DNA of 64,000 nt from a virus: IMG/VR virus record IMGVR_UViG_2700989228_000034, positions 1 through 64,000 of that record; one strand, given 5' to 3'. Positions 774-53,100 of the stretch are shown here, piece after piece; position 1 is the first letter of the stretch, and each line of letters opens with the position of its first letter. The notes below the pieces were generated by a model. It saw only the letters and a program-made list of their open reading frames with translations, searched no databases and was not told the DNA's origin. The position numbers and the translations under genes were made by a program.

Positions 774-847
774 GGGTCTATAGCTCAAGTGGTTAGAGCA
801 GCACACTCATAATGTGAAGGTTTAGGGTTCAAGTCCCTATTGACCCA
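774..847 (+). tRNA. tRNA-Met/Ile2 (anticodon CAT)
   Basis: Cloverleaf read by hand: acceptor GGGTCTA/TTGACCC (6 of 7 bp), D-arm GCTC-AAGTGGTTA-GAGC, anticodon loop CTCATAA, T-arm TAGGG-TTCAAGT-CCCTA. Confidence 0.75.
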
Positions 848-867
848 CTTTAAGTTTTTAACAAAAT

Positions 868-1167
868 ATGGTACAACTTTCCATTATAATTGATGACAAC
901 AACAAGGTTGCTGTTAATCAGAGTGCTACTCCTACTAAAGTGGAGAAGAAGTCTACAATAGCTGACAAAACTTACTTTATAATAATGAGAAATTTTGATG
1001 AAAGTTCTTGGCTAGAACTAGTAACAGAGGACTTTCAGGAGGCTCTCTTTACTAAGAAGGAACTTGAGAAGAATGGAGGATTTTGTTATTCATACAGAAT
1101 CTTTGTGCAGAAGAATGGTTCTATAGTACCTTGTAATGGTGCTGACTTTGATATAGATTCACTCTAA
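868..1167 (+). CDS. hypothetical protein
   Basis: 99-aa ORF in a compact plus-strand gene array. Confidence 0.3.
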   Translation: MVQLSIIIDDNNKVAVNQSATPTKVEKKSTIADKTYFIIMRNFDESSWLELVTEDFQEALFTKKELEKNGGFCYSYRIFVQKNGSIVPCNGADFDIDSL

Positions 1168-1185
1168 CCTCTTAAAAGAAAAGTA

Positions 1186-1259
1186 GCATCCATAGCTCAA
1201 TGGATTAGAGCAACAGCCTTCTAAGCTGTAGGTTGTGAGTTCAAGCCTCACTGGATGCA
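1186..1259 (+). tRNA. tRNA-Arg (anticodon TCT)
   Basis: perfect acceptor GCATCCA/TGGATGC, D-arm GCTC-AATGGATTA-GAGC, anticodon loop CTTCTAA, T-arm GTGAG-TTCAAGC-CTCAC. Confidence 0.85.
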
Positions 1260-1300
1260 CAAAGATTACATAAGCTTTTAACACTTTAAATACTACAATT

Positions 1301-1594
1301 ATGTTCGGACAAATCACAAACAAAAAAGGAGAAAACTTGTATATTCTTACATCTGTGTCTACTAATGACATCAAGCCTTATATCACAGTAGATACTTGGG
1401 CAAAATGTAAAGAATGGTTAGAACAAATGACCGTAGAAACAGATAATGATAGGTTCTTTGCTCAACTTGTACATAAAGAAGTCGATGAAGAGTTTCATAA
1501 AGCAGAAGCATCTATGAGATGTAATAAAAAAGGCTGGGGTAGTGACTTCTTTAAGTATATAACTATTGAACCTCTCTACACACAAGCTTGGTGA
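1301..1594 (+). CDS. hypothetical protein
   Basis: 97-aa ORF. Confidence 0.3.
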   Translation: MFGQITNKKGENLYILTSVSTNDIKPYITVDTWAKCKEWLEQMTVETDNDRFFAQLVHKEVDEEFHKAEASMRCNKKGWGSDFFKYITIEPLYTQAW

Positions 1595-1918
1595 TATAAT
1601 AAATAATGACAATCAAAGAACTATATTACTTTGCAATAAACCATTCTTTATTAGATGAAGAGGTTGATGTTGTTACTAGAGAATACAATGAGGAGTTTTT
1701 GAAAGTTACTAAACCTACTAAACCATTGGATTTAAGTAAGGTTGAATATACTTTTGAAGATGTAATAGCGTTGTTTTCTAACTGACACTCTGAAAGAACT
1801 ACAGAGTGTAAAGAGCATGGTGAATCTAAAGTACTAAGCTAGCTAGTTACTTCTATAGCCATAAGTGTGAAGAAGGAATAGAAGAGGGCACACACTTGAA
1901 GAATAAAAAGCCCCAACT

Positions 1919-1990
1919 GCCCTTATAGTTCAAGGGATAGAACACAAGTTTCCTAAACTTGGAATGTAAGTTCGAGTCTTACTAAGGGCA
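1919..1990 (+). tRNA. tRNA-Arg (anticodon CCT)
   Basis: perfect acceptor GCCCTTA/TAAGGGC, D-arm GTTC-AAGGGATA-GAAC, anticodon loop TTCCTAA, T-arm GTAAG-TTCGAGT-CTTAC. Confidence 0.85.
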
Positions 1991-2027
1991 CAAAACAAGA
2001 AACAAGAATAACAAAACAAACAAGAGT

Positions 2028-2342
2028 ATGATAACAAAGAAAAGATGGACTGATAAGGAGAATAATATTCTAGTCCAGGCTATTACAGCTAATCCTCATA
2101 ATATTAAAGAAGCTTGCAAATATGCTGCAACTAAGCTTGAAGGTAGAACACCTAAAGCTTGTATAATGCATTGGTATGGAGTTATAGCTCCTGCAAATAA
2201 CCCAACTAAATTGGGTGTAAGCTTCTTAGCAGTAGGTCCTAAGACTATCTATAAGAATAGAAAGAATAGTGGGAGTTCTATTGTTCAGCCAGAGAAAAAT
2301 ACACTGTGGATTAAAATCAAGAAATTCATAGGATTAAAGTAG
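2028..2342 (+). CDS. Myb/SANT-like DNA-binding protein
   Basis: RWTDKEN..L..A...(19)..LEGRTPKAC..HWYGVI matches the Myb/SANT spacing W-x19-W-x~19-W/Y. Confidence 0.35.
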   Translation: MITKKRWTDKENNILVQAITANPHNIKEACKYAATKLEGRTPKACIMHWYGVIAPANNPTKLGVSFLAVGPKTIYKNRKNSGSSIVQPEKNTLWIKIKKFIGLK

Positions 2343-2462
2343 AACAATATTTCTCAAGGATAGACTTGTAATAGAGAATATCTTTGGGATTACTTAATAC
2401 AACTGTCACTCTAAGTTTTTATAAATAATAAAATAATAAATCATATTAAAATATAATACACT

Positions 2463-2699
2463 ATGGCAAGAAAAAGATTTAACACAGCAAGAGTATGTAC
2501 TTCAGAGAATTATGAAATATCTCATAGAGCACACAAACAAGAATTAACAATGGCACATTCTCAATTACAACAAATGCTAATAAAAGAAGAAATAGTTGTT
2601 AAAAAGACAGCTTATATTAAAGTGTTTGGTAAATTTGTGCCATTAACTAGTGTAGAAATACCTCTATATGAAGGTAAGACAGAGATAATTTGGAAGTAA
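2463..2699 (+). CDS. hypothetical protein
   Basis: 78-aa ORF; a TATCTTTG (-7-like) box lies 77 nt upstream. Confidence 0.3.
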   Translation: MARKRFNTARVCTSENYEISHRAHKQELTMAHSQLQQMLIKEEIVVKKTAYIKVFGKFVPLTSVEIPLYEGKTEIIWK

Positions 2700-2804
2700 A
2701 GTATTATAAATATTGAGACAAAAACATATATTAATGGCATAATTTTAATAGTCTCTATTACCTGTGAAGGTAGTAGAGACTTCTTAAACTTTGAAAGAAT
2801 ACAG

Positions 2805-3185
2805 ATGAAAAAATATATATTAATATTGATTTTATCAATTATAGTCAATATTCCTATCATAGGAGAAACAATAACTCATGTCACTCTCACCTATTATCAA
2901 CCAGTCAAGACTCAGTGCAATTCTGAGCCACTGGTTACTTCTGATGGTAGTAAGATAAACCTCCATCATCTTAAACATAATAAAATTAAGTGGTGTGCTG
3001 TCTCAAGAGACTTACTTTGGTTATTTCCTAAGAATAAACCTAAAAGAGTCTATATTGAAGGTTTTGGTATCTATGAGGTTAAAGATATTACTAATAAACG
3101 TTTCAAACATAGAGTTGATATATTAATACATCCGAAAAATACTAAAAGAATTTGTTTGAAAAATGTAAAAGTCAAAATATTATAA
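2805..3185 (+). CDS. hypothetical protein with N-terminal signal/TM segment; target gene of an HNH endonuclease insertion
   Basis: 126-aa ORF whose last 22 codons recur, synonymously recoded, downstream of the HNH gene at 3714-3794. Confidence 0.4.
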   Translation: MKKYILILILSIIVNIPIIGETITHVTLTYYQPVKTQCNSEPLVTSDGSKINLHHLKHNKIKWCAVSRDLLWLFPKNKPKRVYIEGFGIYEVKDITNKRFKHRVDILIHPKNTKRICLKNVKVKIL

Positions 3186-3712
3186 TGGAAGAAATATGGA
3201 AAGATATTGAACGATACAAAGGTATCTATAAAATATCCAATTTAGGAAGAGTTTATTCTATACAAAGAAAAAGGATTAAAAATACTTTTATAGATAAAGG
3301 AGGATACGTAAGAGTACAACTTTATTATAATTATACTCAAAAAGGATTTTTAGTGCATAGATTAGTGGCAGAAGCTTTTATACCAAATCCTAATAATTAT
3401 CCTCAAGTAAACCATAAAGATGAAAATAAATTAAATAATTGTGTAAATAATCTAGAATGGTGTACTAATAAGTATAACTGTAATTTTGGAACTAAACCTG
3501 AAAAATGTAGAGAGAACTCTTTAAAATTGCAAATGAATAAGAGACAAGTGACAATATATGACTTGGAAGGTCATTACATAGATACTTGTAGAAGTATGAT
3601 GGATGTTGCAAGAAAACTGAATTGTAGTTATGAAAATGTTCAATCTGCATTATATGGTAAAACTAAAACTTGTAAAGGATATATACTTAAATATAATGAA
3701 CAAACGTCATAA
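3152..3712 (+). mobile_element. HNH homing endonuclease (NUMOD4-like N-terminus + HNH_3 core)
   Basis: WKDIERYKGIYKISNLGRVYS (NUMOD4-like); HRLVAEAFIPNP...VNHKDENKLNNCVNNLEWCT (HNH_3 H-N-H). Confidence 0.7.
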
Positions 3713-3795
3713 TCATTGCATTGACATTCTTATCCATCCTAAAGATACCAGAAGAATTAAATTGGAAAAGGTTAAAGTAAAAATATTAAAATAAA

Positions 3796-3999
3796 ATGAC
3801 ATTTATAAAGATTATAATATTCCTTTTACTAACAAGTATGTTAGCTATAGGAATGATGTATGTAATAAGTACTCCTACACCTATAAAGACTCCACAAGAA
3901 TTTCAGTATAAAAAGCATGATTACATTTATTTTCCTGGTAAAGGAATTATACATTCACCAGAGTGCAAACAATGTACATTAACATTTGAAACAATATGA
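3796..3999 (+). CDS. small membrane protein
   Basis: 67 aa with an N-terminal TM helix. Confidence 0.3.
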   Translation: MTFIKIIIFLLLTSMLAIGMMYVISTPTPIKTPQEFQYKKHDYIYFPGKGIIHSPECKQCTLTFETI

Positions 4000-4244
4000 T
4001 TATATTAGGAATAATTTTATTATTATTAGGATTTATTGTATCTATAGTAATAATACTTAAAGACCAAGTTGATAAATTAGATTTAATTGGCGTATATTCC
4101 AGTGTAGCTGTAATGGTAGGAGGTACAATGATGATACGTGAAAATAACTGTCCACAAGCTATAGATGTCTATAGAGGTAAAACAACCTTACAGATAACAT
4201 ATAAAAATAATGTGCCTATAGACACAACAGTAGTTTACAAATAA
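3996..4244 (+). CDS. small membrane protein
   Basis: 82 aa, N-terminal TM helix; start overlaps the previous stop (ATGA). Confidence 0.3.
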   Translation: MIILGIILLLLGFIVSIVIILKDQVDKLDLIGVYSSVAVMVGGTMMIRENNCPQAIDVYRGKTTLQITYKNNVPIDTTVVYK

Positions 4245-4262
4245 AAAAACATTAATTAAATT

Positions 4263-4445
4263 ATGTATACTTTAGGAATACTTACCACTATTGCCATAGT
4301 TTTTGGATTTGGACTGCTAATATATGCTATATTCGAGTCTACTTTACTTGGCAATATAAAAATTGCATGTAGTGCATTTTTTGGAGGAGTTTTTGTAACA
4401 ATAGGATTAACAATACTATTATATCATATTCTATTTACTGTTTAA
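4263..4445 (+). CDS. small membrane protein (2 TM)
   Basis: 60 aa, almost entirely hydrophobic. Confidence 0.3.
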   Translation: MYTLGILTTIAIVFGFGLLIYAIFESTLLGNIKIACSAFFGGVFVTIGLTILLYHILFTV

Positions 4446-4707
4446 AATAATGATAACTTTAGAGAGGTCAACTCCATCTCAAAGAAAGAAAATAGAACTT
4501 ATTGAGAAATGGATGAACATCAAATTCAAAGGCTGTATCACTAGTAAAATAGATTGTCAACTATTTATAGATGATTACTATGAAGATGCAGTCTGTTTAC
4601 AACAAGAATACAACGAACTATGAAAGAAGAATATACATCATGGGAGTACTTCAAAGAAGATACTCCTATTCCTAACATCAAAGTAAATAATCACTAAACT
4701 AAACAAT

Positions 4708-5193
4708 ATGGAAACAAAAGAACTCAAAATACAAGTTCCAGAAGGTTATGAAATTGATAAAGAAAACTCTACATTTGAGCGTATCAAATTCAAGCCTATA
4801 AAGAAGGATATTACATATGAAGATGTGTGCAATAGTATGCTTAAAACAGGTTATTATACAGATAGTCGTGGTAACATTCTGCATGTTACAGAGTATGCTG
4901 ATGATGTCAAAATAGATAAAAATAATGCTACTAACGAAAAACAACTTAAAAAACTATTAGCACTAAATCAACTTCTTACTATTGCTGAATATTATAATAG
5001 GAATACTGCTAAATTAAATGTAAGATACCGTATATGCTATGATAGTACTAATTATTATTATAACGTAGTTCCTTACGAATCTTACAACTTTACATATAGT
5101 CTAGAAGCTCTATTTAATAATGAAGAAGATGCTCTAGCAGTAATTGATAACTCTAACTTCCGAGAAATTCTTGATACTATTTATAAAGATTAA
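4708..5193 (+). CDS. hypothetical protein
   Basis: 161-aa ORF. Confidence 0.35.
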   Translation: METKELKIQVPEGYEIDKENSTFERIKFKPIKKDITYEDVCNSMLKTGYYTDSRGNILHVTEYADDVKIDKNNATNEKQLKKLLALNQLLTIAEYYNRNTAKLNVRYRICYDSTNYYYNVVPYESYNFTYSLEALFNNEEDALAVIDNSNFREILDTIYKD

Positions 5194-5795
5194 TATTTAT
5201 GGATAAAGGTATAAAAAATTGTGAAGTATATAATATAGACATTGAAAATTGGAAAAACCATGCCTTTATTAATATAAAAGTAGAGGAGGGCTATACTATT
5301 GTCCTTATAATACATTTATAACTAAAGATTCTACCTATTATAAGAGTGAGATTAATTCAGGTAAATTTGAAATAATAGGCAAAATTAAGAATGAAGGTAA
5401 AGAATACTCTGTTCTTGGTAACTACGCATATAGTAATGGTTATCCTGGCTTGGGTAGCTTTATTTCTTATCAAAGTGTGAGTACTTCTGAAAGTAATTAT
5501 AGTGGATTTTTAGGTTGTGCCACTAAAGAGATTGCTCAACATTTCAGTAAATACTTTGGTATGCTCATTACTGAAGCCAAGTATGCAGATATGATAGACT
5601 TTGAAATCATAGAAATTAAATATCAATAATTATGGCAAAATTTACAGTAAAAGACCTTCGAGAGGCATTGAAGAACCTTGATGAAAGTAAGGAAGTTATA
5701 ATTGTAAACTCCTACTCAGGTAGTGACAAGATTGACATTGAATATATCAAGGAACTCAAAGAAAATGGTAAAGAATACTACAAAATTAATATCTA

Positions 5796-6239
5796 ATGGC
5801 AAAGATTAATTTCACAAAGGAACACTTTGATAAGATGTGCTCATTGCTTCTTACTATGTTGCTCAACAACAATACAGTAAATTCTAAGCTTGGTACACCT
5901 ATCAATGTAGTTGAGTTACTTCACACTACTACAATTAACTCTCTTAATAATATCAGACTTGCTTTATCTAATAAGATTGAGCAGCTTGAAAGTCAAGATG
6001 AGTGGATTGCAAGTGACTCTACTGCAAAGCAGTTAAATACTGCTAAAGAGCAGAAGGAGCTTGTGAACCTAGTAATAGGTTACAAGAGGTATAAAATGGA
6101 AGTTGAGGAAAATGCTCAGAAGAAAGCTATACTTACAGCTAAGCTTAAAGCTCTTAAAGAATCCCAGAAATCACCTGAAGATAAGATTAAGGAGCTTGAA
6201 GCAGAGCTTTCAGCAATAAGTGAAACTGAAACTTTCTAG
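5796..6239 (+). CDS. coiled-coil protein
   Basis: 147 aa with a Lys/Glu-rich heptad C-terminus; immediately upstream of the TROVE/vWA gene. Confidence 0.35.
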   Translation: MAKINFTKEHFDKMCSLLLTMLLNNNTVNSKLGTPINVVELLHTTTINSLNNIRLALSNKIEQLESQDEWIASDSTAKQLNTAKEQKELVNLVIGYKRYKMEVEENAQKKAILTAKLKALKESQKSPEDKIKELEAELSAISETETF

Positions 6240-6327
6240 TAGTATAAGGAAGACATATATAGTTCAAAGATAAAAAAGAATATCCTAACTACGTTACTTA
6301 CAAAAATAAAACAAAACATTAGCAAAA

Positions 6328-8151
6328 ATGGTACAGGTAAAATTAAACAAAAGTAACGATAATCCTTTTTATGGATTAAGAAGCTGCCTTAGACTCTTTC
6401 AGAGTGTAGGCAACACAATTGATGCATCATTACTTAATGCTTGTTGGTTAGAAGTTCGAGGAAATAAGGAATACAGGCAAATGTTCTTTAGTTTGCTTTT
6501 CTCAATTGGTGATATTACAGCTAGACAGCATAACATCTTTAAGGGTGTTAAGAGAGATAGTGGTGGTAATGCCAATAGAGAAGGTTTTCAAGTAGTTCTT
6601 GATTGGATGTGGAATAAACATCAAGCTCAATTTGTGAAGTTCCTTGAAGCAGGTTTATTTAATGAATATACTTGCTTTGATTTGCTGTTTAGGAATAGAG
6701 TACAAACTAAATGCTCTAGAGTTATTAGAATACACAATCTCTTTGCTGAAGTAAAATACAGAGAGGTTATTGCAAACTATCTCTATAAGGTTATTAATGG
6801 TAATAATCCTTTCAATAAAACTCTTGTTGCTAAATTCTTGACACTCCCTAGAGTAAGCAAAAGAAGTGGTCATAGCAAGATGCTTCCTGAAACTAAAAAG
6901 GTAATGGAAGATAAGGTCAAGTTACTTATAATGCTCTCAGAACTTATGGGTTGGGAGTATGAAGTAAATGATGGCTATGCTAACTTCAAGGGCTATAGGA
7001 AGTGGAGAAAGGATTATAATGGTGACCTTGAGTCAGTATTGTTCTCTACAGGCAAAATCAATGACTTTGATAAACAATCATTCATTGATTGGTTTGACAA
7101 GCTTCCTTCACAAGCAAGGTTTAGAGTTAAGAACAGAATCCTTTACAGTAAGATTAAAGATACTGAGAAGGCTAAATATCCTAAGTTCCAGCCTTGGCTT
7201 GCTGAATGGGAGAAATACAAGGAGTCTAAACAAGCTGAACAGAGAGTTCTAGAAGAAAAAGTTAGACAAGGGCAAGCTACAGAGGAAGATAAAATCAAGT
7301 TGAAGAAAGTTGCAAAGCAGGCTAAGGTCAATACAGGAGCAACTAACTTCAAAGAGCTATATAATGACATCTGTAATGATAATGTAGATAAGCTTAAGCT
7401 TGAAACATTCATGACTAAGGTTAATCTTCCTTATAATAGTCTTGTAATCATAGATGATTCAGGTTCTATGCATGGCAAACCTTTCAACTTTGCTTCATTC
7501 TTGGCTTCTGTATGTCTATGTAAGAACCCAGATGATGATGGTAGAAACTTACTTGGTTTCTTCAATACTAACAGCCACTGGCATACTTGTATAGATAGGA
7601 AGAATAATTCTATAAATTCTTTCATCAGAAGTGTGACAGTAAAGACTAAGCAAACTCCTTTTGTTGACCCTAAGAAGAGCTTCTATGAGAATTATCAATC
7701 TATCAAGAACTTCTGTAGTGCAGTATTCCAAGGTGGTGGTACTAATATTAGTAGAATACCTGATGATTTGCATAAAGAATGTCAGAAGAATCCTCAGATA
7801 CTTGATGCTCTGAAGAACTACCCTGTATGGACTATCATCAGTGATGGAGAATGGAACTCATTGTGGTCTCCTGAAGCTTCAATGAATGACTTTATGATGA
7901 GGTGTCAAAGATACTTTGGATTTAAGCCATATATTGTAGCTATTGATGTAGATGGTGGTTGGGGCTTTAGTAGTGCTTCTATCAATAGATTTGAAGGTAT
8001 TGAGAATATGATTTACATTCCTGCTAATATAGCACAGATTGAGCAGTTCTTAACTAACTTCAAAGATATGGATATTATGGATGTTTATACTCCTTTACAA
8101 TCATTGTTTAGGAGTAATAGATATGACATAGTGAGAGAGAATGTGCTTTAA
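6328..8151 (+). CDS. Ro60/TROVE-like N-domain + C-terminal von Willebrand A domain protein
   Basis: MIDAS vWA motif LVIIDDSGSMHG about 370 aa from the start, plus a TDG-type strand (WTIISDGEW). The N-domain has VLDWMWNKHQ and CFDLLFRNR, which resemble Ro60 AIADWYNEKG and HKDLLRLSH as recalled from memory. The layout, a ~370-aa helical domain followed by a vWA domain, matches Ro60/Rsr. Confidence 0.45.
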   Translation: MVQVKLNKSNDNPFYGLRSCLRLFQSVGNTIDASLLNACWLEVRGNKEYRQMFFSLLFSIGDITARQHNIFKGVKRDSGGNANREGFQVVLDWMWNKHQAQFVKFLEAGLFNEYTCFDLLFRNRVQTKCSRVIRIHNLFAEVKYREVIANYLYKVINGNNPFNKTLVAKFLTLPRVSKRSGHSKMLPETKKVMEDKVKLLIMLSELMGWEYEVNDGYANFKGYRKWRKDYNGDLESVLFSTGKINDFDKQSFIDWFDKLPSQARFRVKNRILYSKIKDTEKAKYPKFQPWLAEWEKYKESKQAEQRVLEEKVRQGQATEEDKIKLKKVAKQAKVNTGATNFKELYNDICNDNVDKLKLETFMTKVNLPYNSLVIIDDSGSMHGKPFNFASFLASVCLCKNPDDDGRNLLGFFNTNSHWHTCIDRKNNSINSFIRSVTVKTKQTPFVDPKKSFYENYQSIKNFCSAVFQGGGTNISRIPDDLHKECQKNPQILDALKNYPVWTIISDGEWNSLWSPEASMNDFMMRCQRYFGFKPYIVAIDVDGGWGFSSASINRFEGIENMIYIPANIAQIEQFLTNFKDMDIMDVYTPLQSLFRSNRYDIVRENVL

Positions 8152-8349
8152 TAGCACAAATCTATGATACTTACAACATTTTATAATTTGCTAAAATTAA
8201 GATAAAATATATATAAGTATCAATAAGGGTATAGGAGGAGTGATACCTTCTATACTCACTTCAAGACACTTACAAATTTATTTGCTTTTATAAAAAGGAT
8301 GACATAGATTTTATTATATTAGTGTCTACAAACATTCAGTCACTTACAA

Positions 8350-8428
8350 TACTAATAGCATTAGCTCATTTGGGTAGAGCATTAGACTTGTAATCTAAGG
8401 GTAGTTGGTTCAATTCCAACATGTATAT
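8350..8428 (+). ncRNA. tRNA-Thr(TGT)-like element with an unpaired acceptor stem (pseudo-tRNA or Y-RNA-like)
   Basis: canonical D-arm GCTC-ATTTGGGTA-GAGC, anticodon arm TTAGA-CTTGTAA-TCTAA and T-arm GTTGG-TTCAATT-CCAAC, but the 5' ATAGCAT cannot pair with the 3' ATGTATA. The unit is enclosed by the flanking stem AGTCACT(8338-8344)/AGTGACT(8433-8439). Confidence 0.45.
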
Positions 8429-8445
8429 AAATAGTGACTATACAA

Positions 8446-8556
8446 GGGGAAGTAGCTAAAATGGTTTAATAGTATCTTAGATACTTACAATACTAAATCA
8501 ATAAGCAATAGATTTCATAAACTATCAATATGTAGGTTTGAGTCCTACCTTCCCCA
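8446..8556 (+). ncRNA. tRNA-like RNA with a ~57-nt insertion in place of the anticodon arm
   Basis: perfect 7-bp acceptor GGGGAAG/CTTCCCC, D-arm-like GCTA-AAATGGTTTAA-TAGT, T-arm GTAGG-TTTGAGT-CCTAC; the internal region contains hairpin AGTATC-TTA-GATACT followed by TACAATACT; total 111 nt. Confidence 0.45.
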
Positions 8557-8561
8557 CTTTT

Positions 8562-8627
8562 GGCACTTACAAAAGTAACTTTGTTTAATTATTTTTGGTA
8601 CAATACATAACAAGTAGTGCCAATTTT
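8562..8627 (+). ncRNA. motif-bearing stem element without a tRNA-like core
   Basis: GGCACT-TACAAAAG...(48 nt)...AGTGCC, 6-bp closing stem. Confidence 0.3.
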
Positions 8628-8629
8628 AT

Positions 8630-8743
8630 AAGGCAGTCGTCTAGTGGTCAGGACACAGGTTAATAAATATTAGTATCTGATGATACTTACAATACTTAAA
8701 AAAATGGGTCTCTGTAACAGAAGTTCGATTCTTCTCTGCCTTA
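8630..8743 (+). ncRNA. tRNA-like RNA with a ~58-nt insertion in place of the anticodon arm
   Basis: perfect 7-bp acceptor AAGGCAG/CTGCCTT, canonical D-arm GTCT-AGTGGTCA-GGAC and T-arm AGAAG-TTCGATT-CTTCT; the internal region contains hairpin AGTATC-TGAT-GATACT followed by TACAATACTT; possible closing pairs ACAGG/TCTGT; total 114 nt. Confidence 0.5.
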
Positions 8744-8747
8744 CTTC

Positions 8748-8858
8748 AGCTACTTACAATACTATTATTTCATAGGTTCGAGTCCTATATTACCCTTCTT
8801 ATGGATAATTAGCATAGTGGTTAATGCAATACACTGTTAATGTATCAATTAAGTAGCT
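8748..8858 (+). ncRNA. circularly permuted tRNA-like RNA (Asn-GTT-like) enclosed by a 9-bp terminal stem
   Basis: Order 5'-3': stem strand AGCTACTTA; T-arm ATAGG-TTCGAGT-CCTAT; acceptor strands joined as hairpin ATTACCC-ttcttat-GGATAAT (6 of 7 bp); D-arm GCAT-AGTGGTTA-ATGC; hairpin ATACA-CTGTTAA-TGTAT; stem strand TAAGTAGCT. Confidence 0.45.
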
Positions 8859-8907
8859 ATTTTTAGAAAACATTTTTCATTTCATATTAATTTTAATAAA
8901 CAAAATT

Positions 8908-18350: not shown

Positions 18351-20540
18351 ATGATAATAAATGCAGATAAAGGTAATATAAAAGTTTTAGGAGACATCCG
18401 AGAATTTAAGACCTCAATAGACCCAAAGAATCTTGAGTTTATTACCACATTATTGTCATCTAACTTATATTCTGACCCAGAACAATCATTCATTAGAGAG
18501 ATTGTTAGTAATGCTTGGGATAGTCATGTAGAAGCAGGAACAACAGATATTCCTGTTATTATCAGATTTAAGAGAAGTAATGATGATGGTTGTTGGGAAG
18601 TAACTATTAGAGACTTTGGTACAGGGCTTAGCCCAGAGAGATTCCAAGAAGTCTATTGCAATATTGGAAGTAGTACTAAGAGAGAAAGTAATGAGTTCAT
18701 TGGAGGTTTTGGTATTGGAAAGTACTCAAGTTTGGCTTGTACTAATACAGTATATATAACTTCTTATTATGAAGGTACAGCATTTCTCTATGTTATGGTT
18801 AAGAGTGGAAATACAATTACCACTAACTTAGTAATGAAAAAGCCAACAGAGGAAAAGAATGGTGTTGAAGTAACTATCAAGAACATACCTAATATAGTTC
18901 CATATAGGAAAGCCTTAAAGTATATAGTTTTCTTTCCTAATGTTTATGTTGATGGTATTGATAATAGATTAAATAACACTAAGCTTAAAAGATTCAATAA
19001 TTTCGCTGTAGCTTCAGAGCCTATAGATACTAAGATTCTTTTAGGTAATGTACTTTACCCTTGTAACACTAGACTTCTATCTATTACATCAGGGGACTTC
19101 TTAAAAAATATAGAATTCTCAGGAATTGTAATCAAGTTCAATGTTGGAGAGATAAGTATTACTCCTAATAGAGAGAATATCATTTATTCAAGTGATACAA
19201 TAAGCAAAATAGAAGATAGAATCAAGGCAGCTAAGGCTGAGCTGGATACTATGGTAAGTAATAAGTTTAGCAAAGACTATGATAATCTTTATGAATATTA
19301 TAAAGCAACATCAAATAAGATATGTTATAATCCTTTGGATGACTCTTATTACTGTATCAGAGGATACCCTTATTATAGAGAAAAAGGCTATTGTTCTGTC
19401 GTTGATTCTAGTACTCTAACATTTAAAGGTTCTACAATTCTTAGGGATTGTGAAGACTTCCTTAGCTCATTCTTTGGCATGAAACTTCCCAACTTTAAGG
19501 GATTATTCTATAATGATAGATTCTATCAAAATAAAATTCCATATAATGCACAGGATAGAACAAAAATGGGAGAAGCTTCAATTATTATGATTGAAAGCCC
19601 TAGATTAACAGCAGTAGCTAAGTCTTGGCTGCAAGATAACTATGACAAATATACTATAATTACTAGCTTTGACAAAGCTCAATTTACAAGTTATATAGAA
19701 GATAATGTCATAAACTTGAAATTTTCTCCATTTAAGAATGCACTTATAGACTATATGTATGACTACATTATGTCTAAAGTAAAAGTTATAAACTTAGATG
19801 CAAATGCTGAGTTTTTAGCTTATAAGGAGGAATTAAAGTCTAATAAAATACCTGTAGTTAAGATTAAAGACTTTATACTGTATATTCAGAAAAATCCTGA
19901 GTATAGAGAAAAAAGATACTTTAAGGACATTAATTGCTGTATAAAGTATATAAAGAGTCTAGAGAAAGGTGTTATACTTGCTGATATGAAGGAATCAGAC
20001 AGTTGGTATAGTATTGCAGAGGCTAGAGGATTTGTATTTATTAGAGCTAGAAAAGAGATAATAGATGCTTTTTATGAGCTTAAGCCAACATTCTTGGTTA
20101 ATAAAGACTGGGTGTTGAAAGAAGACCCTATTATAGTTAAACTTCATACAATAATTGAGTCTTTTAAGGGTGTAAGTATGCCAACTAACTATAGTGGCTC
20201 TGAAATGCTAAGCACTATTCCTATGCCATTGAAGAGTAAGTTCAAAGATATAATTGATTTCTATTATAGATATATTGGAAATAAAACTTATGTGGAAGTT
20301 GCAAGTAAATGCACAAAGATAGACTCTTATATTAAGGTAATCTGCGAGAAATTTAAGAGCCATATTGAGATATATAATAATCTTAGTAAGGAAGTTGAAC
20401 TTAAGATTGATGGAGAAGAATCTTTGAAAGGTTTACTTATGGCAGCAGTTATAGTTAAAAGCAAAGCTTATAGGATTAATCCTAAAATATATGACAAAGT
20501 AAAGAATAACAAACTTTTAAGAGTATTATGCAGAAAGTAA
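18351..20540 (+). CDS. GHKL-family (Hsp90/MutL/MORC-like) ATPase domain protein
   Basis: N-box REIVSNAWDSH; G1 IRDFGTGL; G2 GGFGIGKYSS; the remaining ~550 aa show no recognisable family signature. Confidence 0.55.
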   Translation: MIINADKGNIKVLGDIREFKTSIDPKNLEFITTLLSSNLYSDPEQSFIREIVSNAWDSHVEAGTTDIPVIIRFKRSNDDGCWEVTIRDFGTGLSPERFQEVYCNIGSSTKRESNEFIGGFGIGKYSSLACTNTVYITSYYEGTAFLYVMVKSGNTITTNLVMKKPTEEKNGVEVTIKNIPNIVPYRKALKYIVFFPNVYVDGIDNRLNNTKLKRFNNFAVASEPIDTKILLGNVLYPCNTRLLSITSGDFLKNIEFSGIVIKFNVGEISITPNRENIIYSSDTISKIEDRIKAAKAELDTMVSNKFSKDYDNLYEYYKATSNKICYNPLDDSYYCIRGYPYYREKGYCSVVDSSTLTFKGSTILRDCEDFLSSFFGMKLPNFKGLFYNDRFYQNKIPYNAQDRTKMGEASIIMIESPRLTAVAKSWLQDNYDKYTIITSFDKAQFTSYIEDNVINLKFSPFKNALIDYMYDYIMSKVKVINLDANAEFLAYKEELKSNKIPVVKIKDFILYIQKNPEYREKRYFKDINCCIKYIKSLEKGVILADMKESDSWYSIAEARGFVFIRARKEIIDAFYELKPTFLVNKDWVLKEDPIIVKLHTIIESFKGVSMPTNYSGSEMLSTIPMPLKSKFKDIIDFYYRYIGNKTYVEVASKCTKIDSYIKVICEKFKSHIEIYNNLSKEVELKIDGEESLKGLLMAAVIVKSKAYRINPKIYDKVKNNKLLRVLCRK

Positions 20541-21145
20541 TTAAGGTTGACAACAAAGTCACTGTCTTTCTTGAGAATGGAGAAATTGTAGAGAAAGAAG
20601 TTACTGAAGATGAGTTTAAGAAGGTTGTTGAAGCTCAAACAGATGAAGAAGTATTGAAACTTCTATGCCCAGAGTATCAAAAGAGTATAGAGTTACATAA
20701 CAATGCTTTGACTCTAATTGAGAAGATACAAAAGTCTAAGCTCCTCAGTATGAGAGGTGATGTTGTTTATTGGGAAGAAGTGTCTTGTCTTTCTGTGCCT
20801 GAAGAGCTTGTAAAAGCTATTATAAAGGCTGAGGAAGAGCACAATGAGTTGAAGATTTCTACTTATAGAAACTTCTGGACTCTTATGTCACTTAATCCTG
20901 ATGAAAGATGTAGGAAGAATCTATTTTGGTTCTTGCAGAAGTATGGTATGACCATTTCAAGATGTGGTTTCTTTGTTGGTTATAGAAATGTAGATAAAAC
21001 AGAGGAGGAGAATGTATTCACTGACCATCACTCCCACACTTTTAAGATTAGAATTGGTGAGATGGTTACTATGAACAGAAATAAATGTGATACTATACAG
21101 GAGAATACTTGTAGTACAGGGTTAGTGTGTAGCCCACTTTACTAG
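20528..21145 (+). CDS. hypothetical protein; probable N-terminal fragment of a gene split by a homing endonuclease insertion
   Basis: ends ...CSTGLVCSPLY followed by three in-frame stops (TAG TAA TAG); a diverged copy of the tail sequence (GDTGLACLINPA) lies 3' of the LAGLIDADG gene. Confidence 0.45.
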   Translation: MQKVIKVDNKVTVFLENGEIVEKEVTEDEFKKVVEAQTDEEVLKLLCPEYQKSIELHNNALTLIEKIQKSKLLSMRGDVVYWEEVSCLSVPEELVKAIIKAEEEHNELKISTYRNFWTLMSLNPDERCRKNLFWFLQKYGMTISRCGFFVGYRNVDKTEEENVFTDHHSHTFKIRIGEMVTMNRNKCDTIQENTCSTGLVCSPLY

Positions 21146-21434
21146 TAATAGTATTGTAAAATATTGAGTAAAATCGGTGAAATTATTTGGATAGTTGCAG
21201 AAAAGGTCGTATCTTTGCAGTATTAATGCAAAAGATATGGATTATTTGAAAATTTATTAAGAAGAGCATATTAAGAATAGGCTCTCTTATTCTCAAATTA
21301 GAGAAAAGTACAATATTTCTAGAGGAACATGGGATTATTGGATTAGACAAAAATTAGGTAAAAGTGCAGACCAAAGAAAGTATGTATGTAAAGATGATTT
21401 CTTTGATAATATAGACTCTGAAATAAAAGCCTAT

Positions 21435-22055
21435 TTGTTAGGCTTTTTGTATGCTGATGGTTATATATCAAATGATGGTAGAATAGGAATTTTATTGAAT
21501 GAAAAGGATGTAGAGATATTAGAACTTATTAAAAAATTTATAGCTCCAACATCTATTATTCAACATATAAATTACCAAAACATAAAAAGGAATCCTCAAG
21601 TAAAAATCAGGTTTAGGTCTAAAAGATTATATAAAAGATTACAAGAATTAGGCTTTACTACTGATAAGACACATACTAATTGTGATATTCTACTTAAAAT
21701 TCCATTCCAATATAAGAGAGACTTTATAAGAGGCTATACAGATGGTGACGGTTGCATTAGATTTGATAAGCAAGGAACTTGGTATAAATTAGGTATTACT
21801 TGGTGTAATGGAGTACCCAAAATATTAGAAGAAATACAGAAGTATTTTAATCAATGTAAAGGACATTTGCATCATATAAATAATTATTATACTTTATCCT
21901 ATGAAAAAAAGTCTGATGTTTTAATTATCTGTAAAAGTCTTTATGAAGGATGTACTTATTATTTGAGAAGAAAATACATAAATGCAATTAATAGTATTAA
22001 CTATTGTAACAATACCGAGCTAAAGCATAAAACTAAAGAGTTATGCTCAGTGTAA
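21435..22055 (+). mobile_element. LAGLIDADG homing endonuclease (two-motif)
   Basis: LLGFLYADGYI and IRGYTDGDGCI; the sense frame is open from 21261 without an ATG, so the real start is a non-ATG codon or undefined. Confidence 0.7.
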
Positions 22056-22346
22056 CGCATAGACAGTGAACCTTTAATGAAGAATATAATCTGTCCAAGA
22101 GTGCTCATACCCTACTTAACTGAGGGTGAAAATATATGCTGAACTATAGGGAAATCCAAATACCTATAGAATATAGAGATAAAAAGCTCTATAGATAACA
22201 AAATTGTACATATTGGAGGTAGAGGATGGCTGAAGAAGAATTACTATGGTGATACTGGATTAGCTTGTCTTATTAATCCTGCTGATGTAGTTGCTGTTCC
22301 TCCTTATGATGACTATGGAAAGCTTAGAACTTGTGCTTATCTTCCT

Positions 22347-22574
22347 ATGGATATTATACATTATGATAAAACATCAAATGTTATTCCATTGGATGTAGAA
22401 GATGGTTTTGACTGTAGTTATGTTACTAAGGTAATCTATGAAGGTACTATGGGAACAAAGGAAGATTCTACTTATAAGATTAATATTCCTGAGATACCTG
22501 GAATTACAGTTGAGAGCATACAGGATAAGCTTCTTGAGATTGCCAAGGAGTGTATTGTATGTAGAGAACTATGA
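22347..22574 (+). CDS. hypothetical protein; probable C-terminal fragment of the gene split by the LAGLIDADG insertion
   Basis: in-frame sense codons extend back to 22170 with no ATG and include DTGLACLINPADVV, which resembles the upstream ORF terminus. Confidence 0.4.
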   Translation: MDIIHYDKTSNVIPLDVEDGFDCSYVTKVIYEGTMGTKEDSTYKINIPEIPGITVESIQDKLLEIAKECIVCREL

Positions 22575-23248
22575 CAATAGATGAGTATTTTGGAGATTGG
22601 ATGAAAGTACTAGATAGAAATGAAACTATGAAGATAATGGGTTGGTTAAGAAACATTAATCAATCTACTCTATGTCCATCAATAAAAGATGTATTTAAGG
22701 CATTTAAGCTTTGTCCTTATAGTAATTGTAGAGTTATCTTTATAGGACAAGACCCATACCCTCAAAGAGGTGTGGCTCAAGGAGTTCTATTTGGTAATTC
22801 GTCTGATACTCCAGAAAATAAATTATCTCCTTCCTTGCAAATAATAAAAGAATCAGTTATAAATTTTGAGATTCCACATAATTTGATTACCTTTGACCTC
22901 ACTTTAGAGAGTTGGGCTAAACAAGGTATTCTTATGATTAATTCAGCATTGACTACAGAGGTTGGTAAAATAGGTGTTCACATGATGAAATGGAGACCCT
23001 TTATGATTGCTTTCTTAAAGCAGATGTCAATGATTAATCCAGGAATTATCTATGTTTTATTTGGTAGTCAAGCTCAGATATTAGAGCCTTATATCAATAG
23101 GAACAATTATGTGCTTAAAATTGAACATCCTGCATACTTTGCAAGGACAAATAAAAAGATGCCTTACCATATATGGAAGGATATAAATAAAATACTCTAT
23201 GACCTTTATGGAGAAAAGATAGAGTGGTTTAAAGAAGAAAAGTTTTAA
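22571..23248 (+). CDS. uracil-DNA glycosylase family-1-like protein
   Basis: VIFIGQDPYPQRGVAQGVLFGNS (GQDPY motif) and a C-terminal EHPAYFA (HPSPLS-like). Confidence 0.55.
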   Translation: MTIDEYFGDWMKVLDRNETMKIMGWLRNINQSTLCPSIKDVFKAFKLCPYSNCRVIFIGQDPYPQRGVAQGVLFGNSSDTPENKLSPSLQIIKESVINFEIPHNLITFDLTLESWAKQGILMINSALTTEVGKIGVHMMKWRPFMIAFLKQMSMINPGIIYVLFGSQAQILEPYINRNNYVLKIEHPAYFARTNKKMPYHIWKDINKILYDLYGEKIEWFKEEKF

Positions 23249-23263
23249 TTAAATACAAAGAAA

Positions 23264-23794
23264 ATGATGAAGTTTATTGTAGCCAAAAGTGGCAAAGAGA
23301 TTAATCCTGGTGATAAAATCCTTATTGTAGGAGCTGTAAATACTCCCGTTGGTATGATAAAAGCTCAGAAGATTGTTACTGTTACTAAAGAGCTTATGAG
23401 TAAGTTTATTAAGGATGGTAAAGTAAATGTAGTAGAGGAGAAGGACACTAACAAGATTTGGAGTAATGCTATTGAGAGTCTTTCTAAGAAAACTAATTGG
23501 AAGGAAGAGAAGCTTTTGAACATTCTTAATACTCTTCACCTTGCTAATCCTTGGGCTGCAACTCAGATGGTATTGAGAGAAATTGCCATTGAGCTTGATA
23601 AAAAGTATGATGACCACATCAATAAGAGTGAGAAGATTTATGCTATCTCTCCTCAGGATGGAAGGATTCATGAAATCAACAAGAAGACTGTAAAGAACTA
23701 CAAGGCATTCCCTGCTTTCAGAAGTATTGAAGATGCTAAGATTGCTTGTAGCCTTATCAGAGAGCATCTTAAATCAATTTTCAGTAATGCCTAA
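23264..23794 (+). CDS. hypothetical protein
   Basis: 176-aa ORF. Confidence 0.35.
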   Translation: MMKFIVAKSGKEINPGDKILIVGAVNTPVGMIKAQKIVTVTKELMSKFIKDGKVNVVEEKDTNKIWSNAIESLSKKTNWKEEKLLNILNTLHLANPWAATQMVLREIAIELDKKYDDHINKSEKIYAISPQDGRIHEINKKTVKNYKAFPAFRSIEDAKIACSLIREHLKSIFSNA

Positions 23795-50125: not shown

Positions 50126-50132
50126 AAAAGCT

Positions 50133-53100
50133 TTATAATCCTAAACAATTTAGTTTATGCTTCATTTCTTCATCCTCAAGTGAGGACCAAGAAGTCTCAT
50201 TGAAACCTTGCATTTCAATTCCTTCTCTTTGTTCCTGAGTTAAATTATTCCATTGATATTCCTCTGGTATAGGTGTAGACCTAGTTGTAATATCCATATT
50301 GAAATTATTCAGTTCAGTAGAATCCATTCCAAACATCTCCCCTAAGTAACTGTCACTAAATGAAGTTCCTAAAATAGGGTCTATAGTCTCAGTTGAAGGC
50401 TCTGAAGGTATAGCTTCTGTTGGTTTAGCTTCATCATTAGTTTCTGCTTTGACAGCATTTTCAACTTCACCAAACATTGCTCTTTCTTCATCTGTCATTT
50501 TCTCCCAAACTATATGAGGTTCTGTATAATTTACTGCAATAGTATCTTGCAATGTAGGATTTGCACCTGTATAGTTTTTACCATCAATCATTAACTGATT
50601 AGCCTTTTCAGGAGATACTGAATAATCTGCTGAACCATTCTTCCAACCTGATGGAGCTGGGTATTCAACACCAATAGGAATTAAATTAAGTGATTTAACT
50701 TGTATTCCATATTTACTTTCTAAGAACTTCTTATACAAAGACAGCTGTCTTGAATATTTCTCTTGTTTATGTTGGTCTATACCACTTCTATTTGTCTTCA
50801 TATCAAAGATAAAGAAGTTTCCATTTCCATCATAAGCAAGTAAGTCAAGTGTACCTGCAACATCTACTGTATGTATCTTACCATTTGAATCCAATACATC
50901 TAATGAACCTGTAACTGTTACATCTCTTGGAATTATTGTAAGACCATTTGATATAAAGTTATTTCTAAGACTCATTAATTGTTCTTTGAACTTTTGTAGT
51001 GCTTCTTTTGTGGCATTTGGATAATTTTCAGCTAATTGCTCAGATGTCATATTATCTAATTTTCCAGCAAAGAAATCTCTAACAAATTCATCAAAGCCTG
51101 TACCTATATTAGTAGAAGGTACAACCCAAGGACTATTAGGGTCAAATCTTTCTCCATCTTTTTCATCAGCACTAATCATTGATGTAACTCTAGCTAAGAA
51201 TTTACCTGTCCTAGTATCTCTATAGCCAGATTCATCTTTTAGTTTTTCAATGTGTTTTGAATCTTCAATTATTTTTTCAACGACAGCAGCAACTCTTTCT
51301 CTTGCAGGATTAGTAGGAATACTAGGTTTACCATCAAGAATTACACCAGTATCAGTAACTATAGCATTACCTGATTTTACCTGACCTTCTGCAATAGTAG
51401 GAGTAGTAATAGGCTGTTGAGGTTGTGCATTTACTGCATTAGCAGTTTCCGTAAATGCAGGAGTACCATCAGCTTTAAATGGATTTTGAACTGCAATACC
51501 TTGTATTCTATAATTAAAAGTTGTGGCAGCAGCTCCTAATATACCATCCTCATATATGTCACTAATATTATCAGCAGCAGCCTTACTTTCAGATGTTTTT
51601 TCAGCATCAGAATATAGAACATTCCATTTAGCAAATGAATCATTAGCATTAGTCATCCTAACATTCCAGCCTTCATCTAATATTAAATTCTTAAGGAAAT
51701 CTTCTTGACAAGATTTAATATCTTCTGCTGTCATTCCACTATTAAATGTAGCTAATGGAATTACCTCAGAGGTGTTAGAATTTACAAGGCTTAAATCCAT
51801 TATTCTGTTATCACCATCAACTTCAGATATAGGAGTTATCCTATATTCCCACCCATCTTTTATAGGGATATTAATGAAATTATCAATCTTCTTTTGAAGA
51901 TTACTAGCCATAGTTTGCAATGCTTCAGCAGTTGCTTCTGTAGGGACTATTTGACCATCAATTTCTTCATAGACTAAATCATCTGAATTAAAACTTTTTA
52001 CAAAGTTTTCTAATGCTTTAGCAGCTCTAGATGTTCTACTATTAAAGTTTATAATATCTCCATCTCTAGCTTCATCTTCAAAGGTATTATCAGAATTTCT
52101 AGCAGTACTTTCATTAATGGGACTTACAAATATTTCTATTTGATTGAACCTTCCATTCAAGGTTGGTTGATTAAACACTAATGCTTTTCTACCACCTATC
52201 ATTTTAGTTCCAAGTCCTTTTAGGAAATTTCTCTTTGCCTTCTGATATGCAGGATTTCTCCTCCTTTGCTTCTTATTTTGTGACTCTAGTGGAGTTCTTT
52301 CATCCTGACTTAGGTCATTTATTGCAATATCAGTAACATTATTTCTACCTCTATAATTTATATCTGCTGAATAGGCTTTTGGCTTTCCATAAGCTTTAGT
52401 TACAATAGCTTTACCATTAATGGATATTAATTGAGTTCCAGTATTACTTTGAGCAGCATTTCTAATAGGAGCCATGTGTGTAGAACCTGCACTTCCTAAA
52501 TGATTAGTTGAAGACATTATACTAATAGGTTGGTATTTCCTATCTCCAATAACAACAGGACCATTCTTAGATTCTACCACTGCAATAATTGGCATAGACA
52601 CTTCAGGGTTATAAGTATAGCCATTAGATTCCATATCTTGCTTTACTGCATTGGAAAATTCTTCATCTGTGATAAAGAATATATCTGGATTGTTATCCAA
52701 TATTCCGTTTCTTAAGGCTTCTTCTATATTATACTTCTCGTAGTATTTTATAGTAGGACTATTAGGAAATCTTTGTCTAATGTTATCAATGTTTACACTA
52801 GCTATAAAAGATGAGCTACTGTTTGCATTAGGAAACATATTATAGTTAGAATTTAACTGTCTGTTAGTATTATCTAACTGCTGTCTTTTTTTATCAAAAA
52901 GAGGTGACTTAGACTTCTTCTCCTCTGTTACAGATTGTTCAGAGACTTTAGCTGCCTTAACCTTTGCAGCTATCTGTCTTAGGAAATCAGCTCTTGGGTC
53001 TGTTCCATCTTCAGAGTTAGTCTCTCTTGTATTAGCTGAAGATATAAGAGCACCTACAAAGTCTTCTACATTTTCAAATGAATTTATACTTAGACCTTCA

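Follow-up and report, generated by a model that had tools for sequence, protein, structure and literature searches.

Group I introns that bear homing endonucleases are classical elements in phages (PMC3984707). The stretch of DNA analysed here comprises positions 1 to 64,000 of IMG/VR virus record IMGVR_UViG_2700989228_000034 (64,000 nt, hereafter the window), and at 20528-22574 it very probably holds one rIIB-like gene in which a mobile group I intron of 1084 nt, with a broken homing-endonuclease gene, separates the first base of codon 199 from the rest. The closest described systems are the phage IA introns with endonuclease open reading frames (ORFs), namely those of T4 td, nrdB and sunY, Twort, the K-like Staphylococcus phages and the Bacillus SPO1-type phages (PMC3984707). 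The window intron resembles them in its protein-coding host gene, a 5' splice site marked by a U-G wobble and a terminal omega-G, as well as in the position of the hairpins P7.1 and P7.2 between P7 and P3' and in early in-frame stops after the 5' splice site. An ORF in a peripheral loop that partly overlaps the core and co-conversion of the exon flanks are also shared. The host gene (rIIB-like) and the lineage (Steigviridae crAss-like), in contrast, are new for the family within the searches made. Moreover, the commoner endonuclease types in phage introns are GIY-YIG, HNH, PD-(D/E)xK and EDxHD (PMC3984707), while that of the window is LAGLIDADG.

In crAss-like phages, group I introns have been found by protein domains, mainly in the Delta and Zeta groups and in genes such as those for the major capsid protein (MCP), PolB and primase (Yutin et al., 2021, PMC7886860). 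The window differs from these in that it comes from a phage of Steigviridae related to cr116_1 and IAS virus, its intron lies in rIIB and the structure of the RNA has been worked out. In GenBank, the adjacent rIIA gene of cr116_1 is already annotated with an intron-encoded endonuclease, and no published report of an intron in an rIIB-like gene was found in literature searches. rIIB is a new host site and not a new mechanism, the element being a standard mobile intron. A different arrangement is known from Aeromonas phage Aeh1, in which mobE, an endonuclease gene, lies between the halves of the conserved gene nrdA; there is no intron RNA in that case, and both halves are translated on their own. 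The original prediction for the window, made from the letters alone, followed the Aeh1 model. The two loci are indeed alike in having an endonuclease gene between the halves of a conserved gene, but the window has a ribozyme and its downstream half lacks a start codon.

One rIIB-like gene and one insertion

Two intron-less relatives, cr116_1 (an uncultured phage of Steigviridae, Pamirivirus; record MT774389.1) and IAS virus, and one intron-bearing genome, L013 (IMG/VR contig IMGVR_UViG_3300045988_108820, identical to OCLL01000003.1), were compared with the window for the following features.

20528-21122, + strand: exon 1 (rIIB-like gene), made up of codons 1-198 and one base of codon 199 (base-for-base alignment with cr116_1 and IAS virus; phrog_609 and phrog_2886)
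21123-22206, + strand: group I intron of 1084 nt, IA-type, phase 1 (Leu codon T/TA), absent from cr116_1 and IAS virus and present at the same site in L013
21237-22055, + strand: homing-endonuclease gene of 272 codons, with an N-terminal helix-turn-helix and two LAGLIDADG motifs (Pfam, phrog_4645) and an in-frame TAA at codon 8
22207-22574, + strand: exon 2 (rIIB-like gene), with the last two bases of codon 199 and all later codons through the stop; no start codon occurs in the leading 140 nt

The descriptive part of the original prediction held up on re-examination. The first ORF (20528-21145, 205 aa) ends in ...CSTGLVCSPLY and is followed by in-frame TAG TAA TAG (21143-21151), a two-motif LAGLIDADG gene lies downstream, and the frame 22170-22346 is open, lacks ATG, GTG and TTG and continues into the 75-aa ORF 22347-22574. 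An exact-protein look-up of the 205-aa ORF returned no record. The intact homologues, for which a search had been proposed, do exist, since both cr116_1 and IAS virus carry an uninterrupted rIIB-like gene of 963 nt and 320 aa. The sole difference in layout between this gene and the window is one 1084-nt block, 21123-22206. In addition, both flanking pieces match RIIB families at adjacent profile positions, i.e., 192-284 and then 285-329 of phrog_2886, and 819-997 and then 993-1046 of phrog_609 (RIIB). On this sequence evidence the 205-aa and 75-aa ORFs are read as parts of one predicted rIIB-like gene, the latter being merely the tail of exon 2. The view that an endonuclease element interrupts a single host gene was thus borne out by the RIIB profiles and the intact homologues, while its extension to two separate proteins conflicts with the conserved start-less codons and the ribozyme described below.

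Aligned to the rIIB of cr116_1 and IAS virus, the window matches as far as ...ACAGGGT (21122) and resumes at TACATATTGGAGG (22207); the continuation from about 21130 into about 22257 proposed earlier is off by about 50 nt. The intron-less site reads CTTGCAGTTCTGGTT^TGCACATCGGGGG in cr116_1, and the reconstructed intron-less site of the window CTTGTAGTACAGGGT^TACATATTGGAGG. A two-base TA repeat leaves the boundary ambiguous by alignment alone, but only 21123-22206 gives a U before the 5' splice site together with a G at the intron end. The boundaries were therefore set from the intron-less alleles and the U(-1)/omega-G rule. In silico removal of 21123-22206 restores the exon frame, as expected of a group I intron, and yields an in-frame ORF of 963 nt and 320 aa, equal in length to the intron-less alleles. 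The predicted spliced junction is ...ACAGGGT/TACATATTGG, and the junction peptide, CSTGL-HIGGRGWLKK, is the same as in IAS virus.

Codons 200-245 (22207-22346; 46 codons) have no start codon and change mostly synonymously, with 14 synonymous and 4 non-synonymous codons compared to IAS virus. This start-less stretch is evidently under purifying selection, which is intelligible only if splicing joins it to exon 1 and both are translated in one frame.

Ribozyme structure and intron family

A group I core in the RNA flanking the endonuclease gene had been suggested as a further check, and a covariation-supported P3-P7 core was found there. The helix model was derived by hand, and every helix from P1 to P9.1 was checked as fully paired in the window. 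Its elements (P, paired helix; J, joining segment) are listed below.

21119-21135, + strand: P1, in which GGGU of the exon and UA of the intron pair with the guide UAGCCC (6/6 pairs)
21140-21153, + strand: P2, hairpin UACUA-GUAA-UAGUA, with the triple stop TAG TAA TAG (21143-21151) at its apex
21165-21179, + strand: 5' strand of P3 (UGAGU, 21165-69), J3/4 (AAAA) and 5' strand of P4 (UCGGUG, 21174-79), with partners at 22103-07 and 22013-18 across the ORF
21183-21196, + strand: 5' strands of P5 (UUAU) and P5a (GAUAGUU), with partners at 21999-22009 (4/4 and 7/7 pairs)
22011-22206, + strand: 3' ribozyme domain (blastn conservation, RNAalifold, covariance model, covariation, folding), which contains the nine lines below
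22013-18, + strand: P4', preceded by J5/4
22019-51, + strand: P6, followed by J6/7 (GUAAC)
22057-61 and 22135-39, + strand: P7 (GCAUA/UAUGC)
22062-66 and 22091-95, + strand: P7.1, between P7 and P3'
22072-82, + strand: P7.2, between P7 and P3'
22103-07, + strand: P3', pairing with 21165-69
22109-27, + strand: P8
22144-69, + strand: P9
22172-93, + strand: P9.1

At the 5' splice site P1, which is also recovered by minimum free energy (MFE) folding, contains the wobble U21122-G21132. In P10, GUGUA (21127-21131) has UACAU (22207-22211), the five bases that open exon 2, as an alternative partner (5/5 pairs). The intron tail reads GAUAACAAAAUUG and its last base is the omega-G, G22206. The long-range helices are UGAGU/GCUCA (P3) and UCGGUG/UACCGA (P4). 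Single-sequence folding recovers P1, P2, P7.1, P8, P9, P9.1 and most of P6, and the MFE z-score of the 3' domain is -2.8. A GUAA-capped P2 hairpin is likewise present in cr111_1 and Dulem virus 41. The stretches J3/4-P4, P4', J6/7-P7 and J8/7-P7' resemble the classical P, Q, R and S elements. Both P7.1 and P7.2 lie between P7 and P3' and covary; this points to subgroup IA of the Michel-Westhof scheme, an assignment based on the two hairpins and not on a database match, and not narrowed to IA1, IA2 or IA3. P7.1 and P7.2 have been counted among the class-defining elements of group I introns (PMC3984707).

When the intron alone was used in blastn, its last ~195 nt were found as 67-78% identical copies in other crAss-like phages as well as in phages of several hosts (Staphylococcus, Bacillus, Clostridium, Clostridioides and Enterocloster). 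Those annotated records that were examined have the conserved core just 5' of the downstream part of an interrupted gene. The genes concerned are terL (Staphylococcus phage 6ec), MCP (bajarodcaudo virus 1), the RecD helicase gene (Bacillus phage PJN02), pol/primase (Dulem virus 41) and the major head protein gene (cr111_1), and several of these records annotate an intron or a homing endonuclease between the gene halves. The introns of these phages, bajarodcaudo virus 2 and Clostridioides phage pCD1602_4 share with the window J3/4-P4, P7, J8/7 and the tail GAUAACAAAAU(U)G, and their helices occupy identical positions and covary. J3/4-P4, P7 and the tail are almost invariant in the family. On the other hand, the host genes differ, and the guides vary from intron to intron, each matching its own exon (CAUGGU/GCCAUG, GACGGU/GCCGUC, GGAGAU/GUCUCC, GCGGU/GCCGC).

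The cargo also differs. Bajarodcaudo virus 2 has an ORF-less 248-nt intron, the excision of which likewise restores the reading frame, whereas the intron of 6ec carries an 'endodeoxyribonuclease' ORF in P5. In the major head gene of cr111_1 (fragment 1751-2618) and the MCP gene of bajarodcaudo virus 1 (intron b; fragment 3054-3874) the endonuclease ORF starts inside P7.2, with the ATG within GAAACUAUG, and the N-terminal sequences look like GIY-YIG. Cargo type and loop therefore differ within one intron family. Two closely related ORF-less copies were also observed ~500 nt apart in pCD1602_4 (~1900-2187 and ~2430-2697 of the fragment), apparently within one long structural gene; this record is unannotated.

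Comparative support for the helices came from several analyses. When eight 3' domains were simply aligned with MAFFT, RNAalifold predicted P6, P7, P7.1, P8 and P9.1, with 20/32 pairs compensated. A covariance model (R1) trained on seven homologous introns of other phages, with the window excluded, matches 22011-22205 over the full model length (165.8 bits, E 8e-41), a score that falls inside the range of its own training sequences (145-199 bits, n=7). P3 and P4 were counted by script. The long-range P3, which spans the ORF and forms a pseudoknot with P7, has 5/5 pairs in 11 introns, with compensatory changes present, and P4 is nearly invariant across the family. The components of a group I core (P3-P6, P7-P3'-P8 and a covarying P3/P7 pseudoknot) are therefore all in place.

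The proposed splicing steps follow standard group I chemistry. The pre-mRNA would fold and the guide UAGCCC would pair with the exon end GGGU to form P1. Exogenous guanosine bound in P7 would then attack after U21122, and the freed exon end would attack after omega-G 22206, with P10 aligning exon 2. Joining of ...GGGU to UACAU... would give the 320-aa rIIB protein, while unspliced RNA would give the 205-aa truncated product only, because the P2 hairpin supplies three in-frame stops.

Endonuclease gene, homing and competing explanations

The endonuclease ORF sits in the loop closed by P5/P5a, whereas that of T4 td lies in P6a. The ORF of the window shows the motifs LLGFLYADGY and FIRGYTDGDGC in its translation, and matches above the cut-offs were obtained to PF14528 (LAGLIDADG_3, 5e-07) and PF00961 (LAGLIDADG_1, 6e-05), along with phrog_4645 (4e-42). 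A PDB search gave a single weak match, 2dch, and an NCBIfam search no match. As had been noticed originally, the frame is open for 58 codons 5' of TTG 21435, itself inside the first LAGLIDADG helix, and contains no ATG, GTG or TTG over this length. The missing start is explained by an in-frame ATG at 21237 followed by a TAA at codon 8 (21258-21260), so that the ORF reads MDYLKIY-TAA-EEHIKN. Intron-encoded endonucleases of Staphylococcus phages align in tblastn from residue 2, across the stop, and the L013 copy, which has GAA at codon 8, is an intact 272-aa ORF reading MNFLKIYEEEHIKN. The ORF of the window is thus two-motif LAGLIDADG but interrupted, and its endonuclease has probably lost activity through the TAA. 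Between the two copies there are 38 synonymous and 15 non-synonymous codon differences; given this largely synonymous divergence, the knockout is either recent or an assembly error.

The last 45 nt of the ORF run through P5', P4', P6 and J6/7, and its stop is the UAA of J6/7. Such an overlap of ORF and ribozyme requires controlled expression (PMC3984707). Two short hairpins, UGCAGAA...UCUUUGCA and UUUGCA-GUAUUAA-UGCAAA, were observed at 21197-21236, directly 5' of ATG 21237, and could limit endonuclease translation.

An intron 25-mer, searched in collections of IMG/VR and JGI metagenome sequences that do not contain the window's own source contig, located the same intron at the same rIIB site in one other genome only, L013. 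An exact 20-mer over the 5' junction had no match in IMG/VR; the L013 copy differs in the P1 loop. Between the window and L013 the intron is 93% identical (~95% in the 5' and 3' ribozyme segments), while the rIIB exons are only 81% identical. By contrast, the exons of the window are 94.5% identical to those of cr116_1, which is intron-less. In the 45-nt bin spanning the junction this relation is reversed, the identity to cr116_1 falling to 78% and that to L013 rising to 93%. A compensatory change was also observed in P5a, where G21194-C22001 of the window is A-U in L013. The presence of the intron does not follow the host phylogeny, since it is missing from the nearest relative but found in a more distant phage, which is the pattern of a mobile intron. 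The higher identity of the intron than of the exons and the flip at the junction indicate that the intron spread by homing with co-conversion of flanking markers, a process that has been reviewed (PMC3984707). An intact endonuclease would cut intron-less rIIB alleles, and homing would proceed by recombinational repair. The intron in this genome is probably splicing-competent but no longer self-mobile.

A number of points weigh against this interpretation. We infer splicing, endonuclease specificity and the loss of endonuclease activity, whereas the sequences themselves show the boundaries, the restored ORF, the covarying fold and its family, the presence/absence polymorphism, the co-conversion footprint and the nonsense codon. 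The exon share of P1 is just 4 bp. A MAFFT alignment of 'mini-introns' had P8 and P9 out of register, so the covariance-model alignment was used for the pair counts instead; among the 15 best R1 matches 96.3% of cells are standard pairs and 31/42 pairs change on both sides, counts that are somewhat inflated because this alignment (A7) was fitted to R1, a bias from which the MAFFT/RNAalifold result is free. The pairing controls favour the fold: none of 500 shuffles reached the observed level, and slid partners pair in just 29-45% of cases. Finally, the Rfam model Intron_gpI (RF00028) gave no match over the whole window at the gathering threshold, or in 20900-22500 at E <= 10. The same model found nothing in four homologous loci, including annotated split genes and ORF-less introns; the null result thus reflects low sensitivity of the model and not absence of an intron.

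It is also conceivable, though we consider it doubtful, that the endonuclease is still made despite the TAA and the intron is fully mobile. The TAA could be an assembly error, which is a further point against a broken gene, or it might be bypassed by stop read-through or by re-initiation at a non-canonical start, e.g., ATT 21270. The 272-codon frame is otherwise intact and has diverged mainly synonymously from L013, and recoding of TAG or TGA has been described for crAss-like phages (PMC7886860). However, the same study reports reassignment of UGA and UAG only, not of TAA, no suppressor tRNA for TAA was found in the window, and no ATG, GTG or TTG precedes TTG 21435, a codon within the first LAGLIDADG helix.

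Much less probable is a decaying intron, in which splicing was impaired or lost with the endonuclease, leaving rIIB of this phage a pseudogene in effect. In its favour, genes of the rIIB type, as known from T4, are often accessory and dispensable to phages, and the endonuclease gene has a nonsense codon at codon 8. Some LAGLIDADG proteins are maturases (PMC3984707), and loss of the protein could reduce splicing. Nevertheless, no ribozyme helix is disrupted, the core reaches scores on a par with the rest of the family, its 5' and 3' segments are 95% identical to L013, and the reading frame is still open and conserved in both exons and has exactly the expected length. ORF-less members such as that of bajarodcaudo virus 2 also show that an intron-encoded protein is not generally required for the fold.

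The Aeh1-type reading of the original prediction, i.e., a free-standing LAGLIDADG gene that split rIIB into two independently translated, reassembling polypeptides in the manner of nrdA-a/nrdA-b, with a diverged target duplication, now appears very improbable indeed. It drew on the two ORFs that flank an endonuclease gene and on the TGL near the end of the first piece and again in the downstream frame. Against it, the 46 conserved start-less codons under apparent purifying selection would be lost from the 75-aa ORF, and excision gives the exact length of the intact gene. Furthermore, ~114 nt before the ORF (21123-21236), 151 nt after it (22056-22206) and the last 45 nt of the ORF itself are conserved, covarying ribozyme. 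The supposed duplication TGLVCSPLY/TGLACLINPA was rejected, because intact intron-less homologues hold both CS(S/T)GLHIGG and GDTGLACLINPA, ~15 residues apart; the second TGL is native downstream sequence, and 'VCSPLY' is read-through translation of the intron helices P1 and P2. Homing by double-strand-break repair creates no duplications. Precise group I splicing, which had been named as the outcome that would overturn the split-gene proposal, is what the restored frame, the U/omega-G boundaries, P1/P10 and the covarying core point to, as far as computation allows. An intein was rejected since three in-frame stops lie seven codons past the junction, and a group II intron because of the in-frame stops and the lack of a reverse transcriptase.

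Neighbouring genes and wider significance

The host phage is assigned by sequence similarity to crAss-like phages, as a Pamirivirus-like member of Steigviridae. In blastn, 20000-23300 of the window is 94% identical to cr116_1 and 79% to IAS virus, with two pieces and 67% query cover in each case. The rIIB-like gene is preceded by an intact rIIA-like gene of 729 aa and followed by an intact uracil-DNA glycosylase (UDG) gene. The rIIB start ATG sits 13 nt inside the end of rIIA (20528-20540), and the UDG start overlaps the rIIB stop as ATGA (22571-22574); these overlapping ends suggest translational coupling along rIIA-rIIB-UDG. Elsewhere in the window, Rfam places six tRNAs within 774-8879 (at 774, 1186, 1919, 8355, 8446 and 8803), of which ARAGORN reports the first three sites only (Met, Arg, Arg). 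The Rfam match 8446-8556 measures 111 nt, which suggests an insertion or an unusual arm. A weak R1 match at 50129-50260 on the minus strand (13.6 bits, E 0.23) is probably due to chance.

In cr116_1 the rIIA gene is split into an rIIA-like piece, an annotated 'intron-encoded endonuclease' and a 3' part (1608-4814 of the MT774389.1 19000-24000 fragment; window counterpart 18351-20540). R1 gave a weak match of 21 bits to this insert (41-221 of fragment L001). Compared with the rIIB intron of the window, this means that close relatives carry different introns in adjacent rII genes. In L013 the UDG gene is interrupted exactly at GQD/PYP (L013 3812-5420; window counterpart 22571-23248) by an insert of the same intron family (R1 at 4739-4919, 86.7 bits), with a different LAGLIDADG ORF of 233 aa.

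As a tentative proposal, which we hold as possible and not as likely, the ribozyme family may be a distinct, unmodelled IA-type lineage that moves between phages of Firmicutes and Bacteroidota and exchanges its endonucleases among loops (P5a for LAGLIDADG and P7.2 for GIY-YIG, with some members empty). In Pamirivirus-like crAss phages, the rIIA-rIIB-UDG segment would then be a local hotspot in which relatives each have a different intron. The copy in the window would stand just past endonuclease inactivation, the first step of the decay cycle of homing endonucleases.

The finding reveals no new kind of biology. For annotation, the 'genes' of 205 and 75 aa and the frame without a start should give way to one spliced rIIB-like coding sequence, join(20528..21122,22207..22574), accompanied by an intron and a pseudogene for the endonuclease. 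In the phage loci examined R1 picked up more members of the family, whereas the group I model of Rfam found none in those loci on which it was run, and R1 could thus aid the annotation of fragmented genes in gut phage genomes. The locus also offers a clean example of homing, in which a close relative has no intron, a distant one carries it, a co-conversion tract is present and the endonuclease knockout is apparently one mutation old.

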